Shown one piece after another: positions 1,712 through 13,027 of a stretch of 20,000 bases of DNA. The notes under the pieces were generated by a model. That model did no database searches. It was not told where the DNA came from and was given only the letters and a program-made list of their open reading frames with translations. Source of the stretch: an uncultured virus (IMG/VR IMGVR_UViG_3300025305_000013) (taxonomy: Duplodnaviria; Heunggongvirae; Uroviricota; Caudoviricetes); IMG/VR virus record IMGVR_UViG_3300025305_000013; one strand, written 5' to 3'. Both the position numbers and the translations under genes were made by a program. Numbering within the stretch: position 1 is the first letter of the stretch; the number at the start of each line of letters is the position of its first letter.

Positions 1712-4183
1712 TTAATCTCCTTGACATTTACATTTGGGCTGCGCTTTCAAATCCTCTACTTCAGCCGATAGCTCTTGAACAGCATTAACCAGCATAGGTA
1801 CAAATTTGTTGTATTTAAGCCCATACATTTTCCCGTCATTACTGAGACTGGAAATCAAATTACTTTTTTCTTCGCTGCTGAATCCGTAATTTTTTTCCAG
1901 TTCATTTACATCTTGGGCAAGAAATCCAACGTCAAGCTGCTCACTCTTGTATTGCCCATCAGGAGCAATGTCTTGATCCTTGCTATAGTGACTACGCTTA
2001 TCCCAACGATAAGTGACAGGCTTCAGTTGGTTGACAAAACTCAATCCAGAATTCAACTCTGAAATATCTGTTTTATCTCTACCATCAGAGGCAACTGTCC
2101 AATCTACCTGAATATGTGCATGAGTGATGTTTTCATCACCAAGACAAATTTGGTTGTTTCCTGTAGTAACCGCACCGCCCGGAGAGCTTGCAATTCCTGC
2201 ATCCCTGCCCAAACAAAGATTGTTATCGCCTGATGTAATAGACTTTCCGGCATCTTTGCCCACACCAGTATTGCTGTCTCCTGTGGTGGCTTCTAAGGCG
2301 TTCTTGCCAACTCCAACATTGTTATCGCCCTCAGTGTTGGTCTTTAAGGAAGATTCTCCTACGCTGACATTACCAGCGCCAGTTGTGTTCGATGACCCGG
2401 ACACATACCCGACTGCCGTGTTGTTATTTGCGGTCGTGTTTGCTGATAAAGCCTCCCTTCCCACAGCAGTATTGTTACTTCCGGTGGTATTTGCGTCTAG
2501 AGCTATATAGCCCACTGCAACATTGCTGCCGCCTGTGGTAGCAGCCGCCATTGCTGAAGTCCCCACTCCCACGTTTTCTGCGCCCGTAGTAATCGCAGTT
2601 CCTGCCGACTTACCTACCATTGTGTTGGCTGTCGCTGTAGTTGCGGTACTCAGGGCCGCGTCCCCCACAGCAACATTTTGGTTGCCTGTTGTATTCGCGT
2701 CCAAGGCTAACGCCCCCACTGCAACATTTTCTGCGCCTGTGGTGTTTGCAATCATCGCATCCTTGCCCACAGCAGTGTTGCGGCTTGCGGTAGTGTTTGC
2801 CGCTAAAACACTTACTCCGACTGCTACATTGTTAGCGCCTGTGGTATTGGCGGTTAATGCGTCCATGCCCACTGCGGTGTTGTCACTTGCGGCATTACTA
2901 CCACCTGACAAAGCGTTATAACCTACTGCGGTGTTATTTGATTGCGTAGTAATTGCTTGTAATGTGGCTCTACCAAGAGCAGTGTTTTTTGCGCCAGTTG
3001 TGTTTGCACTTAGTGCTTTTTCTCCAACAGCAGTTATATAATTTGCGGTTGTGTTAGCGTCTAATGCTAAATAGCCAACAGCTACGTTAGAAGCACCTGT
3101 GGTGTTGGCAGCTAATGCACTTTTGCCAACAGCAGTATTTGCTGCTCCGGTAGAATTAACCAGCAAAGCACTGGCACCCACGGCAGTGTTATGATCGGCT
3201 GTTGTCGTAGCCCCTCCAGCGTTGTCACCGACAAAGGTATTTGTGCTTCCAGTCGTTACAGCATCCCCGGCTGCATAGCCCACGGCTGTATTGTCTGTGC
3301 CAGAGCTATTAGCCGTTAAAGCAAATGCCCCCACCGCAGTATTATCGGCTGCGGTGGTCGCTACCAATAAGGCGCTAGACCCCAAAGCGGTATTATTTCC
3401 ACCAGTAGTTACGGCTCCGCCTGCGTTATCACCGATCAGCGTGTTGTCTGAACCAGTTGTAACAGCATCCCCGGCTGCGTGACCCACCGCTACATTATCT
3501 GTACCAGAAGTATTAGCTGTAAGCGCCTCCGTACCAACTGCTACGTTATTATTTGCCGTGGTCGCAACCAGCAGAGCGCCAGAGCCAATGGCTACGTTGT
3601 TTCCACCCGTTGTCAGAGCGCCACCAGCGTTGTCTCCGACAGCGGTGTTGTCGGAACCCGTAGTCACTGCATCAAGCGAGGCTTCACCTATGGCAACGTT
3701 ATCCGTTCCGGTCGTTAAAGCTGTGCCTAAATTGCCGCTACCCAGTCCTACGTTACCCGTGCCGCCCGTCATGTCCAAGACATCGGTAACTGCGGCTCCT
3801 GCACCTGCGCCATCAGCTACAACCATCTTGATGCTGCCATTCGGGATAACAACATTAGCCCCGGTTCCTTGGCTAAGAGTTACTGTGTTTCCAGCAGAGT
3901 TTTGAACTACCCAGACATTACTTAATGTATTGGGAGCCAATGTGACCGTGCAAGCCTGAGATAAAGAACCAGTCAAAGTTAACGCCGTAGAGCGAAAAGC
4001 ATCACTTGCGCCGTCCGCCATAGTAATGGTTGCGGTACTGGCATCTGAAAGAGCTTCTGACCCAGAGCCGAATTTTTCAGAAATTAACTCAAGATTTGTA
4101 TTTGTTGTTGTTCCCCAAGTTCCCGAGGCGTCACCAGTCGCCATCTCGTTGAGTCTAAGGTCATTCACATATGTACTTGCCAT
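1712..4183 (-). CDS. Tail fibre / receptor-binding protein with 17-aa repeat beta-solenoid and C-terminal intramolecular chaperone (Peptidase S74-like)
   Basis: N-terminal anchor (MASTY...GDASGTWGTTTNTNL) and about 30 repeats of the type NTAVGxxALxANTTGxx. C-terminal SDGRDK autocleavage motif (Ser codon 2087-2089) followed by LKPVTYRW, GFLAQDV and YNKFVPMLVNAVQELSAEVEDLK coiled coil. GAGG RBS. Confidence 0.9.
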   Translation of the reverse strand: MASTYVNDLRLNEMATGDASGTWGTTTNTNLELISEKFGSGSEALSDASTATITMADGASDAFRSTALTLTGSLSQACTVTLAPNTLSNVWVVQNSAGNTVTLSQGTGANVVIPNGSIKMVVADGAGAGAAVTDVLDMTGGTGNVGLGSGNLGTALTTGTDNVAIGEASLDAVTTGSDNTAVGDNAGGALTTGGNNVAIGSGALLVATTANNNVAVGTEALTANTSGTDNVAVGHAAGDAVTTGSDNTLIGDNAGGAVTTGGNNTALGSSALLVATTAADNTAVGAFALTANSSGTDNTAVGYAAGDAVTTGSTNTFVGDNAGGATTTADHNTAVGASALLVNSTGAANTAVGKSALAANTTGASNVAVGYLALDANTTANYITAVGEKALSANTTGAKNTALGRATLQAITTQSNNTAVGYNALSGGSNAASDNTAVGMDALTANTTGANNVAVGVSVLAANTTASRNTAVGKDAMIANTTGAENVAVGALALDANTTGNQNVAVGDAALSTATTATANTMVGKSAGTAITTGAENVGVGTSAMAAATTGGSNVAVGYIALDANTTGSNNTAVGREALSANTTANNNTAVGYVSGSSNTTGAGNVSVGESSLKTNTEGDNNVGVGKNALEATTGDSNTGVGKDAGKSITSGDNNLCLGRDAGIASSPGGAVTTGNNQICLGDENITHAHIQVDWTVASDGRDKTDISELNSGLSFVNQLKPVTYRWDKRSHYSKDQDIAPDGQYKSEQLDVGFLAQDVNELEKNYGFSSEEKSNLISSLSNDGKMYGLKYNKFVPMLVNAVQELSAEVEDLKAQPKCKCQGD
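2140..3760 (-). repeat. Degenerate coding tandem repeat: 51-bp (17-aa) unit with a 204-bp (68-aa) higher-order period in the 5' part
   Basis: Units such as NVAIGEASLDAVTTGSD / NTAVGDNAGGALTTGGN / NVAIGSGALLVATTANN / NVAVGTEALTANTSGTD recur as a four-unit block. An identical 17-mer ACAGCATCCCCGGCTGC occurs at 3258-3274 and 3462-3478, 204 bp apart. Array boundaries are approximate. Confidence 0.85.
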
Positions 4184-4249: not shown

Positions 4250-5044
4250 TTAAGCTACTTCTTTCCATTTTGAATCTTGAGAATCGCTTACACCTGTCCA
4301 ACTTGGGCTTTGAGAATCGCTTACACCTGTCCAACTTGGGCTTTGAGAATCGCTTACACCTGTCCAACTTGGGCTTTGAGAATCATCTATTATCCCCCAA
4401 ACTAGAATATTTGGAGTTCCTGCAGTTGCTGCTAAACCTGTTAAAGTTACAGTTGCCTTGCTGATAGTGGAAACAGTACCTAAACTTCCTGTACAAGAAA
4501 TACCATCAACTTCAACCCGTTCATTATGGTATACTGTAACACTACCAACCGAGCCAGTAACACTCAGGCCAGTTACCGAAACATTTGCTTCGCCGTCTAC
4601 ATCAACAGAAACTGCCCCAAGAGTTCCCACCATAGTGGGCAGAACTGCTATGGCTTGTGCATTAACGGCTACAACAGGTGTTGCTGTAGTTCCTGCCACC
4701 CCTGATACTGACACATTAGCTGCGGCATCAACAGTGGGTGTTCCTAATGCACTTGTGCCTACCTGAGTTGCTAAAGTTACATTAGCTGCGGCATCAACAG
4801 TGGGTGTTCCTAATGCACTTGTGCCTGCTAAACCTGATACGGATATATTGGCTTCACAATCAAAAGTAGGAGTACCTACAGCTCCAGTGCCTACTTGTGT
4901 GGATAGGGTTACATTGGCTTCGGCAACAACACTAACAGAGCCAACTGACCCTGTAGCTGAAAGACCTGTGAGTACAACGGGGTTGGGTTCACCCCAAGTA
5001 TCTGATCCCCAAGTGCCTCGACCCCAACCAGTGATCGCTGCCAT
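4250..5044 (-). CDS. Gly/Ser/Thr/Val-rich repeat structural protein (tail/fibre associated)
   Basis: N-terminal GWGRGTWGSDTWG, about 22-aa beta-rich repeats, and C-terminal DSQSPSWTGVS repeats. Lies directly upstream of the tail fibre. Confidence 0.8.
   Translation of the reverse strand: MAAITGWGRGTWGSDTWGEPNPVVLTGLSATGSVGSVSVVAEANVTLSTQVGTGAVGTPTFDCEANISVSGLAGTSALGTPTVDAAANVTLATQVGTSALGTPTVDAAANVSVSGVAGTTATPVVAVNAQAIAVLPTMVGTLGAVSVDVDGEANVSVTGLSVTGSVGSVTVYHNERVEVDGISCTGSLGTVSTISKATVTLTGLAATAGTPNILVWGIIDDSQSPSWTGVSDSQSPSWTGVSDSQSPSWTGVSDSQDSKWKEVA
4277..4384. repeat. Perfect 33-bp tandem repeat, about 3.3 copies (coding VNTR)
   Basis: TTGAGAATCGCTTACACCTGTCCAACTTGGGCT starts at 4277, 4310 and 4343, with a partial copy at 4376. 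It encodes an 11-aa unit (DSQSPSWTGVS) on the minus strand. Confidence 0.97.
4713..4826. repeat. 48-bp exact direct repeat, period 66 bp
   Basis: ACATTAGCTGCGGCATCAACAGTGGGTGTTCCTAATGCACTTGTGCCT at 4713-4760 and 4779-4826, encoding GTSALGTPTVDAAANV twice. Confidence 0.93.
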
Positions 5045-8644: not shown

Positions 8645-9502
8645 CTATTCGTAGATTAATCTACTAATTGCTTGATGATGAACATCCAGGGCTTCTGCCG
8701 CTGCTGCTCCTGCTTCAATTCCAATATATGGGATTAAATTAATGTCGTTAGTTAAAGCTGCTGTCGGCGTTGTTCCTTTAGTTACTGCTGTGCCACCAGT
8801 ACTGCCAGAAGTTGTCGTTACATTATACTGGATACCGTTAACAAAAATAGACGCTTTTCTATTAGAGTCAATTTTTATTGCTAGTCGGTATAATGTATTT
8901 GCTGCAACTGTTATAGGAAGAGCACTGATATAATCAGTTCCTCCAATACTGTGAACAAAATGAAGCAATGTATAGTCCGTGAATGCTTCTGAATTTGTTG
9001 CGTCAGTTTGGAACTTGAAAAACGCTTGGTCAGCGTCTGTTGCAATTAACTGATCATTAGTCAATTTGAGACCCGCCCAAATTTTCTGGTTATCAATCGC
9101 ATTAGTCGAGATTGCACATTCCCACTCTACCTGATTTTCCGTTCCCCAACCCGCACCAGTCCAAGCTGTTTGGTTAGTATCTAGATGAGGAAGAATAATC
9201 GATTGATCTTGGTCTGCGCCAGCTGTGGTTATTGTAAGACCAGCTCTATCTGAGTCAAAAGTTACTAAAGCAGTGGTCATATTAGTGCCCAATACTTCAA
9301 AATCTAGATTATACGCAATAGCAATTGCTGCATTGAGTGCTGGTTTTTGATTCCAATACTCGTCTAGATAGTAACGACGAGTATCTCGGGTAGAAACAGA
9401 ACTACCTGAATTATCCGAAATTTCTCCTGTCGTTGAATTCTCACTTATTACCTTAAAACCATTTCTAGACCTAACTGGTCCACTGAATGTTGAATTTGCC
9501 AT
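8645..9502 (-). CDS. Putative capsid-associated fibre/decoration protein with beta-sandwich (lectin-like) domain
   Basis: Strong AAGGAGG RBS. Short N-terminal anchor-like segment MANSTFSGPVRSRNGF, a Ser-rich linker, then a beta-rich domain (YRLAIKIDSNRKASIFVNG). First gene after the capsid terminator. Function inferred. Confidence 0.6.
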   Translation of the reverse strand: MANSTFSGPVRSRNGFKVISENSTTGEISDNSGSSVSTRDTRRYYLDEYWNQKPALNAAIAIAYNLDFEVLGTNMTTALVTFDSDRAGLTITTAGADQDQSIILPHLDTNQTAWTGAGWGTENQVEWECAISTNAIDNQKIWAGLKLTNDQLIATDADQAFFKFQTDATNSEAFTDYTLLHFVHSIGGTDYISALPITVAANTLYRLAIKIDSNRKASIFVNGIQYNVTTTSGSTGGTAVTKGTTPTAALTNDINLIPYIGIEAGAAAAEALDVHHQAISRLIYE

Positions 9503-9595
9503 AATTTCCTCCTTAAGGAAATAATTCTATAGTCTTGGCTTTGTCTGCTAGGTCAGTCTATAGAATAAATATACCCTAGGAATTTTATTCTATCG
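9503..9595 (-). ncRNA. Structured RNA leader downstream of the major capsid gene (candidate Mu-gpT-DE-like element)
   Basis: 9-bp stem 9558-9566/9524-9532 encloses a CUG-ACCUAG-CAG mini-hairpin whose loop CCUAG (9548-9552) is complementary to upstream CUAGG (9575-9579). An alternative 10-bp stem is 9584-9593/9560-9569, and a 7-bp RBS hairpin is 9516-9522/9504-9510. Identity with the published Mu-gpT-DE motif is inferred from location only. Confidence 0.6.
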
Positions 9596-9605
9596 TACAG
9601 CCTAT

Positions 9606-9636
9606 AAAAAAGAAAGGGAGCCGAAGCTCCCTTTCT
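9606..9636 (-). terminator. Rho-independent terminator after the major capsid gene
   Basis: Minus strand AGAAAGGGAGC-TTCG-GCTCCCTTTCT-TTTTT: a perfect 11-bp stem, cUUCGg tetraloop and U-tract, about 20 nt after the capsid stop. Confidence 0.93.
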
Positions 9637-9657
9637 ACACGATTTGAGAATCGTATT

Positions 9658-10566
9658 TTAGGCACCTGGAGAACCGTAAACACCTCTCCAATCCGACCAA
9701 CCAAAGCTGTATCTTTCTCTCGCTTTGTACCGAACATTACCGGTTTCGAAGTCTCCTTCCATACCAGTGCTCATAGCAGCTCTTTCGAAATGCTTCATGC
9801 CGTTAGGTGCATCAGTTTTGATAAAGAATGCATCTGTGTCGGTTAGATAATGGTTAACCGTATAGCCTTCTGGCAACATCCCCATATTTCTTACAGCGTT
9901 GATGTCGTTATCTGAAGTACCGACTCTGCCAGGAGAGTTTAGAATCCTGTCAGCCACAAATTGTAATTGCGGAGGTACAACCAGTTTTCTGGCTTGTACG
10001 TTCACCTTAATACCCCTTTCATCTTTTATTCCAGAGATATCAATTAAGGCGTTTTCCAACGAAGTTTCGTTCAAGTCTGCAGCAGTGCTTGGCTCATTTT
10101 TCTGATCTCCAGCTGTCAAAGTTGGATGGTCAGTAGTCATAAGTGGCTTACCGTCGCCTCCTGGATAGGAAGTTGAGAAACCATTATTAAGCACGTTTGC
10201 AGCTTTTACTTGCTTCGTATTTGCCATTGATCTAGCTAAAGCTCTAGTATATCTAGAAGAAAGCGTATCGTAGAGATTATCTTCGATTGCCTCTTCTGTC
10301 AATGCAAAGGCCAAAGCTATAGTTTCATGGGTGTAACGAGATGTGAAGGTTTCTTGTGCTGTATCATAGCTTACCGCCGCACCTTCTCCTTTAGTAGGAG
10401 CTTGTGCAAAGCCAGATAGCATCACTTCTTCCTCAAACGCTCTATCTGAAGTTTCTGTATCAAAAATTTCAGAATGCTCATTCTCGTAACGATTATACTC
10501 AAGACCAAAAAGTGCGTTCAGTCCTGGCTCGAGTTCTTTTACTAATTGAGCTCTGTTAATTGCCAT
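9658..10566 (-). CDS. Major capsid protein (HK97 fold, Mu gpT-like family)
   Basis: MAINRAQLVKELEPGLNALFGLEY, RYTHETIALAFALTEEAIEDNLY, KLVVPPQL and YKARERYSFGWSDWRG. It is 302 aa, follows scaffold and cement genes, and is followed by a strong terminator. Confidence 0.9.
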   Translation of the reverse strand: MAINRAQLVKELEPGLNALFGLEYNRYENEHSEIFDTETSDRAFEEEVMLSGFAQAPTKGEGAAVSYDTAQETFTSRYTHETIALAFALTEEAIEDNLYDTLSSRYTRALARSMANTKQVKAANVLNNGFSTSYPGGDGKPLMTTDHPTLTAGDQKNEPSTAADLNETSLENALIDISGIKDERGIKVNVQARKLVVPPQLQFVADRILNSPGRVGTSDNDINAVRNMGMLPEGYTVNHYLTDTDAFFIKTDAPNGMKHFERAAMSTGMEGDFETGNVRYKARERYSFGWSDWRGVYGSPGA

Positions 10567-12571: not shown

Positions 12572-13027
12572 TTATTCTACATCTTCCGGGTTATTCACCA
12601 CGGCGAGTATTTCATCATCGTTTAATAAGCGCAGGTCTCCTCCATCAATTTTGATTCGAGCTCCTGCGTATCTTCCAAAAATAATCCAATCTCTTTCTCG
12701 GCACCAAGGACCATTAGGAAATTTACCCTTATCTTTGTAAGCATCTGGCCCCAACGATACTACAAAACCAACATTAGTTCCTAATCTTTCTTTTTCAACA
12801 TAGGAGTCTGCTAACCTGATCCCCCCTTTAGTTACCGCTTTTTGGCTAAACGGTAATATCAACATTCTATATCCTGTTGGTTTAGGAAGTTTTTCTATAA
12901 GAGACTTATCTTCCTGAACAGATTCAGGTGTGAATTCTACTTTATCTTCTTGGGGGGAAATTTCCCGTATTAACGGAACATGATCTGGGACTGATTTGCC
13001 TTGCGGCTGTTTCTTAGCTGACATCAT
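12572..13027 (-). CDS. groES: Phage-encoded co-chaperonin GroES (Cpn10)
   Basis: PTGYRMLILP, mobile loop TKGGIRL, VVSLGPDAY, FGRYAGARIKIDG and LRLLNDDEILAVV are Cpn10 signatures, preceded by a roughly 45-aa N-terminal extension. Confidence 0.88.
   Translation of the reverse strand: MMSAKKQPQGKSVPDHVPLIREISPQEDKVEFTPESVQEDKSLIEKLPKPTGYRMLILPFSQKAVTKGGIRLADSYVEKERLGTNVGFVVSLGPDAYKDKGKFPNGPWCRERDWIIFGRYAGARIKIDGGDLRLLNDDEILAVVNNPEDVE

Follow-up and report, generated by a model that had tools for sequence, protein, structure and literature searches.

What kind of RNA separates the capsid gene of this phage from the gene that follows it, and what could it do there? The stretch of DNA analysed as a whole (20,000 nucleotides, hereafter the window) belongs to a marine podovirus-like genome that reads on the minus strand and encodes a terminase, an SU10-type portal, GroES, the capsid protein and SU10-type adaptors. 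The capsid protein shares 74% identity with that of phage DSL-LC04, 67-69% with those of the pelagiphages HTVC023P (68.8%) and HTVC027P (66.6%) and 59-60% with those of the Roseobacter phages CRP-901 and CRP-902; a phmmer search of solved structures returned no match for it. The minus strand of the window also carries auxiliary genes for a 2OG-Fe(II) oxygenase (692-1381), a staphylococcal-nuclease homologue (66-560) and GroES (12572-13027), a gene for a long fibre-like protein that contains many 14-residue repeats and carries a Peptidase_S74 chaperone domain at its C terminus (1712-4183), and an ORF (4250-5044) with a GWGRGTWG-like repeat at the start and three to four tandem copies of an 11-residue Trp-containing unit at its C-terminal end (4250-4464).

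The element under study lies between the capsid terminator (9636-9611) and a 285-aa ORF that starts at 9502 on the minus strand. A first-pass annotation, made from the letters alone, had proposed here a switch-like RNA with two mutually exclusive folds, one of which (fold A) contains a 5' pseudoknot and the other of which (fold B) uses the same strand, together with a hairpin that occludes the Shine-Dalgarno (SD) sequence. A script check found every pairing that it named in the sequence, namely the 9-bp helix P1, the hairpin P2, the pseudoknot PK1, the 10-bp fold B and the SD hairpin (P3). The folding energy of 9503-9595 is unremarkable (z -1.40, with 21 of 200 shuffles equally good), and since energy alone fails to single out the region, our case is built on comparison. 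A nested-only fold of the promoter-length RNA gives values of 0.04 for P2 and 0.08 for P3 and places a rival helix onto the SD, so that the knotted fold is not predictable from energy alone. The parts of the locus are as follows:

9658..10566, minus strand: major capsid protein gene, the upstream neighbour (Pfam PF25209, 61 bits; PF10124 Mu-like_gpT, 41 bits, cut-off 20.1; phrog_371, major head)
9603..9636, minus strand: intrinsic-terminator-like hairpin (11 bp) and U run 3' of the capsid gene, presumably functional as such
9560..9593, minus strand: fold B (9593-9584 with 9569-9560, 10 bp), in this genome possible on read-through RNA only, and unconserved
9587..9592, minus strand: -10-like hexamer TAGAAT, 7 nt 5' of the first paired base, the predicted leader promoter, lacking a good -35
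9575..9579, minus strand: 5' strand of PK1 (CUAGG), which pairs with the P2 loop; pairing kept and covarying across relatives
9558..9566, minus strand: 5' strand of P1, with two-sided changes in 8 of 9 pairs
9545..9557, minus strand: bulged A (9557) and P2 hairpin (9556-9554 with 9547-9545), whose loop CCUAG (9552-9548) is the 3' strand of PK1; P2 is invariant in 55 of 55 sequences
9533..9544, minus strand: internal-loop strand J, of which GCCA (9539-9536) is the 5' strand of PK2, as judged by comparison
9524..9532, minus strand: 3' strand of P1 (9566-9558 with 9532-9524, 9 bp), as judged by comparison
9504..9522, minus strand: P3 hairpin (9522-9516 with 9510-9504), enclosing the SD (9514-9508), from per-sequence folding of relatives
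9498..9501, minus strand: 3' strand of PK2 (UGGC), the last two bases of the start codon and the first two of codon 2, as judged by comparison
8645..9502, minus strand: the putatively regulated gene (285 aa), encoding a conserved N-terminal arm and a predicted ConA-lectin-like beta sandwich

Conservation of the fold and of two pseudoknots

Relatives were drawn from the best 80 of 600 capsid-matching IMG/VR stretches, from three pattern scans with at least 120 loci each and from nine cultured phages (L numbers, such as L031, denote sampled loci). A descriptor consisting of a paired base, A, C ... G, AC, 5-11 nt, GA and a paired base, placed ahead of an ORF with the N-terminal motif of the family, parsed 417 of 449 loci (356 distinct, 240 of the long and 116 of the short type) and missed 32. 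As it required the core letters and the N-terminal motif, both are circular for the pattern-selected loci; the capsid-selected set, 72 of whose 80 members were parsed, was chosen without reference to the RNA sequence. In that set of HTVC023P-like relatives, the element is present in 74 of 80 contigs, including L039 and L040, which failed the protein filter. The remaining six stop too early, five of them at most 63 bases from the capsid gene and L028 at most 429, short of the position that the element takes in its close relatives L031 and L033, so that it is found in 74 of 74 informative cases.

The window, searched on both strands, contains a single match to the descriptor, and a strong model match occurs once per genome in four of five records, with all other model matches in these five below 20 bits. 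The phage 023Pt_psg01 has a copy that appears deviant by eye (18.1 bits), and the element was not found in the more distant phages MinM2, QDWS535 and RW. The homologous gene of MinM2 (L451), devoid of the core, shows by eye a simple long hairpin over its SD (1590-1634), perhaps a simpler solution to the same need. Among cellular assemblies (185,579 genomes, searched with one pattern for one subtype group), 13 matches were obtained, of which 12 adjoin a capsid homologue and one is a chance match without P1; none lies ahead of a metabolic gene. A capsid homologue with a long SD-type leader is found in the 1.12-Mb chromosome of a Dehalococcoidia metagenome-assembled genome (L461; CP070693.1, about 1,089,000-1,093,000), possibly a prophage, or else a misassembly, in a group described as lytic.

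Fold A is conserved with compensatory changes. In an alignment of 55 window-type sequences (drawn from 78 of the window subtype, with the window replacing its identical contig and the first 54 others added), 89.9% of its cells are paired, eight of the nine P1 pairs vary on both sides, and none of 500 shuffles reaches the covariation score. The second pair of P2 shows matched variation across the subtypes represented by the 72 capsid-selected elements. The proposed 5' pseudoknot is conserved as well: PK1 forms at least 4 bp in 239 of 240 long elements (score 14.0 versus 9.9 with swapped partners) and, while near-invariant inside the window subtype, occurs across the long elements in matched versions such as CUGGG/CCCAG, CCAAG/CUUGG and CCGAG/CUCGG, among others. 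A PK1 sought in the short type performed no better than swaps (10.97 versus 11.29), and these short relatives, devoid of PK1, do have PK2. P3, the hairpin said to occlude the SD, reaches -2.4 kcal/mol or better in 73 of the 78 window-subtype elements, in at least two different sequence versions. These two versions are misaligned by MAFFT, on whose alignment just 62.4% of the P3 cells are paired, and the support for P3 is therefore taken from per-sequence folding. Fold B fared differently, with 58.1% of its cells paired versus 57.4% after shuffling, and a score of 11.97 versus 11.38 +/- 0.37 for swapped strands. Judged by comparison, the structure is thus real and conserved, whereas the proposed switch between folds A and B is unsupported.

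A second pseudoknot, PK2, links the J strand to the initiation region of the downstream gene and comprises at least 4 bp in 355 of 356 elements. The J-to-downstream score amounts to 14.3 in the 240 long elements, versus 10.1 +/- 0.15 for swapped and 9.1 for shuffled partners, and to 13.7 in the 116 short elements, versus 12.1 +/- 0.27 and 8.0, respectively. The partner lies within -19 to +8 of the start codon in all 356 cases, a range partly built in by the search region, which extended from the end of P1 to position +9. It covers the start codon in all 116 short elements, whereas in the 240 long ones it covers the start codon in 81, overlaps the SD in 93, ends at most 5 nt before the SD in 49 and lies elsewhere in 17; in SD-type elements, PK2 mostly measures 5-8 bp. 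Where the partner occupies the start codon (81 long and 116 short elements) or the SD (93), initiation must be blocked as long as the pairing lasts. The short-type loci L068, L077 and L442 have UUG start codons, and the J strand of L068 carries G for A and retains a G-U pair with the start codon.

The tie to translation follows from covariation with the coding sequence. The J strand of 199 elements terminates with the CC motif; here, the nucleotide that precedes CC and position 2 of codon 2 are matched as G:C in 173 cases and as C:G in 21, G:G and C:C never occur, and the five others mostly pair elsewhere. The matched swap entails an Ala/Gly change in the protein. On a FastTree capsid tree (226 of the 356 elements, those with sufficient capsid sequence), the loop base and codon 2 show 10 changes in both traits, and the independent pairs are concordant in 8 of 8 cases (p 0.008), a count that may be too high if the leader-plus-gene module recombines. 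On the same tree, the target of PK2 shifts between the start codon and the SD region 23 times, with the knot retained. The codon-2 covariation extends to elements of the Mu-gpT-DE (RF03012) type; in 40 short elements, hand-picked and enriched for the C version, this position holds G-C 29 times and C-G 10 times, and one element leaves it unpaired. The structure thus sits over the initiation region of the downstream gene, as it does in an autogenous translational operator. Comparison thus establishes the fold, its two pseudoknots and the link to the downstream gene and its initiation region.

The leader, its gene and its kinship with Mu-gpT-DE

In 12 of the 72 capsid-selected cases, the element is separated from the capsid gene by 366-663 bases yet remains on the same downstream gene family, and in HTVC027P two genes are inserted between the capsid gene and the leader. 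A small gene cassette of about 450-550 bases between capsid terminator and leader is seen in the pelagiphage-like loci L032, L035, L039, L040, L043, L044, L059, L067, L078, L079, L447 and L454. Of the long elements, 106 of 233 have a -10-like box 12-16 nt upstream, as do 74 of 115 short ones, compared with 9 and 4, respectively, in a control window. The first paired base follows the box by 7-8 nt in 61 of 97 long elements and, in the short type, by 8-9 nt in 26 of 40, which puts this base near the expected transcript start. The site in the window was not among the 44 sites returned by a consensus promoter scan. On a rough scoring, strong U runs are followed by the box more often (142 of 196) than weak ones (51 of 151), which would be expected if the leader arose by read-through or else from a promoter of its own. 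No terminator-like site was found between the element and the ORF, into which the RNA runs directly. Linkage to the downstream gene and the frequent -10-like box identify the element, at the level of sequence comparison, as a 5' leader of that gene that is not tied to the capsid gene and is presumably transcribed from a promoter of its own. Four RNA runs, in the form of contigs that give no start, strand or level, contain just 5-7% of the sampled words, and relatives of the element are present in contigs of three of them.

The product of the downstream gene is likely a capsid-surface protein, as far as modelling and synteny can tell. The model of the 285-aa protein (pLDDT 64.8) shows, at modest confidence, a lectin-like beta sandwich, with SO2946 and legume lectins as the best Foldseek matches (TM 0.4-0.6), and the syntenic gene of DSL-LC04 is annotated as a cement protein. 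A profile built from nine relatives weakly matched the Pam1-type cement chain 7eel_H (E 0.71) and gave another structural protein at E 0.034. A phmmer search of solved structures gave nothing for the downstream protein and chance-level matches only for the DSL-LC04 cement protein, and an Atlas search mostly returned unnamed viral clusters, one row of which, with PF18454 on 15% of its members, is a lead only. When the 241 complete downstream proteins are grouped by the sequence that follows residue 25, 24 clusters result; the N-terminal arm alone is common to them, having been used as a filter.

The first-pass annotation had also suggested that the RNA is the Mu-gpT-DE motif or an analogue. Its position agrees with this view, since the capsid protein scores 41 bits for Mu-like_gpT and true RF03012 members occupy the same site in relatives. 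The Rfam model itself does not recognize the element. A search of the whole window against Rfam at the gathering score (49 bits for RF03012) gave no match, a search of 9400-9750 at E <= 10 gave eight weak matches, mostly on the terminator, none near its own cut-off and none to RF03012, and RF03012 scored 8.2 and 13.4 bits at the element of two window-type records, exceeding 49 bits in 0 of 5 records. Among 20 relatives scanned (13 picked as short-looking and 7 as long), 10 exceeded the cut-off, all of them short. The reverse model R1, built on the window type, gives 25-60 bits for long SD-type elements and at best 20.4 bits (E 0.19) for short ones.

Both forms share P1, one bulged A, P2, a 12-13-nt 3' internal-loop strand of the form AC...CC-A-(A/C)-GA, the position before the same gene family and the pairing of J with the start codon. 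In Mu-gpT-DE, P1 is an invariant helix of 4 bp (40 of 40 short elements) whose 3' strand continues into the SD, and P2 is a long hairpin, whereas the window type has a 9-bp P1 free of the SD, a 3-bp P2 with a pseudoknotted loop, the 5' PK1 and the P3 hairpin. In the intermediates L031 and L033, an RF03012-like top of P1 is joined to a PK1, and the capsid tree shows 17 alternations between short and long forms. Given the shared position, core and start-codon pairing, we class the window element, in spite of the failed Rfam model, as a pseudoknotted variant of Mu-gpT-DE, an assignment made by comparison of sequences. The shared core, J ending, start-codon pairing and gene family, together with the intermediates and the alternations, further lead us to infer a common origin of the two forms.

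A palindrome that we take to be parS-like occurs in 17 of the 356 distinct loci (22 of 467 loci overall; none in the window), in 16 of them either inside P2 (L334, L344, L348, L357, L399, L402, L408 and L439) or within 120 nt upstream of a short-type element (L041, L370, L375, L383, L393, L403, L430 and L440). Its presence inside P2 implies that the tip of P2 is free to vary, and it may be that a ParB site of the host lies next to the capsid gene in these phages.

The Mu-gpT-DE motif is said to originate from work published by Weinberg in 2017. The main text of Weinberg 2017 (PMC5737381) does not name it, and a search for its name or accession in literature largely outside the subscription journals returned the CaCoFold paper only. 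The motif bears the accession RF03012 (Rivas 2020). Its Rfam model comprises 53 positions and 9 pairs, has no pseudoknot, ends at AUG and is filed as Gene; sRNA, and the ZWD structure has 11 pairs. In the supplements of the CaCoFold paper, Mu-gpT-DE is grouped with the loop and non-Watson-Crick covariations and does not figure among the new pseudoknots; the consensus drawn there ends at AUG. RF03012 appears six times among the matches of Fremin 2023 (PMC10690425). The window's core is absent from six of its supplementary files, and the long form could be one of the candidates that are left without a name there. In the 40 matches listed from a blastn search of the region against cultured phages, the records match the terminator only, and the literature searched, including parts of PMC9599517 and PMC10149686, yielded no description of this leader.

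Several proposals of the first-pass annotation have therefore stood, namely a structured RNA, its 5' pseudoknot, kinship with Mu-gpT-DE and a site able to affect the next gene, whereas the Rfam match, fold B and the ribozyme and packaging ideas have not. What the comparison adds is the second knot, which involves the start codon, as well as a -10-like box and the element's tie to the downstream gene.

Possible modes of action

We propose, at a rough probability of 0.45, that the element represses translation in response to a phage protein, a reading that is drawn from sequence comparison and whose least certain part is the trigger. P1 and P2, linked by the conserved internal loop, would be locked by the two pseudoknots, with PK1 joining the predicted 5' end to the P2 loop and PK2 placing the internal-loop strand on the start codon, while P3 would hide the SD and return the start codon to the core. 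Ribosomes could not initiate on the RNA folded in this manner (OFF). In the window, PK2 consists of just 4 bp (GCCA with UGGC, -4.2 kcal/mol as a free duplex), so that a helper is to be expected. This helper would most likely be a phage protein, either the unassembled product itself, acting through its conserved N-terminal arm, or a partner in capsid assembly. Free protein would thus keep its own synthesis off until capsids soak it up. A protein trigger is favoured by the marginal PK2, the maintenance of the core where a plain hairpin would suffice, the exclusively structural gene context and the common N-terminal arm. The lectin-like fold of the product, not that of a known RNA binder, counts against a protein operator, and the 66 of 240 long elements in which PK2 stops short of the SD or lies elsewhere, perhaps without covering the SD, count against repression.

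A self-folding knot could also act without any ligand, as a brake that fixes initiation of the minor capsid protein at a low rate and a cap whose paired transcript 5' end resists 5'-end-dependent decay. The closeness of the first paired base to the expected start, the small number of invariant letters, the 5-8 bp of PK2 in most SD-type elements and the mere hairpin of MinM2 speak for such a device. However, a plain hairpin would suffice for it, and all informative relatives (74 of 74), from several hosts, keep one and the same core, as if it were specifically recognized, which makes this reading unlikely, albeit one to be taken seriously. Alternatively, a small molecule or ion might bind in the conserved internal loop and close PK2, as in the preQ1 pseudoknots over the SD, whose classes occlude the SD in part or bury it completely (PMC11625349); the compact knot, the conserved unpaired purines and the marginal PK2 would fit this picture. 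Such a riboswitch appears improbable, considering that Rfam searches at the gathering score and at E <= 10 matched no riboswitch family, that few bases are invariant and that the element was seen before a virion gene only and before no metabolic gene (one pattern, one subtype group). The copy number required of a cement protein can be similar to that of the capsid protein, and the 66 long elements with PK2 off both SD and start codon would be compatible with a leader that aids translation, offering the ribosome a standby or docking site and presenting the initiation region to it, with PK2 forming transiently. We give this possibility little credence, because in the majority of elements the partner occupies the start codon or the SD and blocks initiation while paired.

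The originally envisaged switch, in which read-through RNA adopts fold B and promoter-derived RNA fold A to produce two outputs, draws on a nested model of this genome that yields 0.95 for fold B on read-through RNA and 0.93 for P1 on promoter-length RNA, and 13 of 77 window-subtype elements can form at least 8 bp at fold B. Yet this model omits pseudoknot energy, the start codon is still paired in fold B (0.82) and the covariation of fold B exceeds neither shuffles nor swaps, leaving the switch very improbable. The same holds for a self-cleaving or otherwise processed RNA and for a packaging RNA, both contemplated by the first-pass annotation. Double-pseudoknot RNAs include small ribozymes, and the element adjoins the capsid gene; however, no ribozyme family was matched at the gathering score or at E <= 10, short relatives do without PK1 but keep PK2, the RNA is continuous with the ORF, and the covariation with codon 2 ties the element to translation. 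Returning to repression by a trigger, it is quite possible that Mu-gpT-DE and its knotted relatives represent a single, widespread class of translational switches in phages, in which a conserved three-dimensional core would sense either the capsid-binding N-terminal arm of an unassembled virion protein or else a small molecule, and would then fix a re-targetable strand on the start codon or the SD.

Comparison with known systems

The phage group carrying the leader is very common in the ocean, and the gene behind it is a probable capsid-surface gene. An orphan Rfam 'sRNA' becomes a testable cis-regulatory leader in this light, which suggests a role for a catalogued motif that so far lacks an assigned function and extends the class to forms that the Rfam model misses. 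In phage P22, unassembled scaffolding protein reportedly limits its own synthesis (Wyckoff and Casjens in 1985). That product is of a different protein class, and we know of no such RNA structure in the P22 case. The preQ1 riboswitches likewise form compact pseudoknots that bury the ribosome-binding site partly or fully (PMC11625349), whereas the element described here has neither an Rfam match nor a link to queuosine genes and stands in a phage structural context. Our working analogy is provided by the operators of T4 gene 32 and E. coli rpsO (S15), in which a leader pseudoknot serves autogenous translational repression (PMC3014915). The likeness is drawn as an analogy, and the product here is a virion protein. 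Moreover, the knot of T4 gene 32 lies 67 nt upstream and nucleates coating by the protein, whereas here the knot itself pairs with the start codon. A 2010 review considered the gene 32 knot as possibly the sole viral pseudoknot in translational autoregulation (PMC3014915); a second one, linked to capsid decoration, would show a phage balancing the parts of its virion after transcription.
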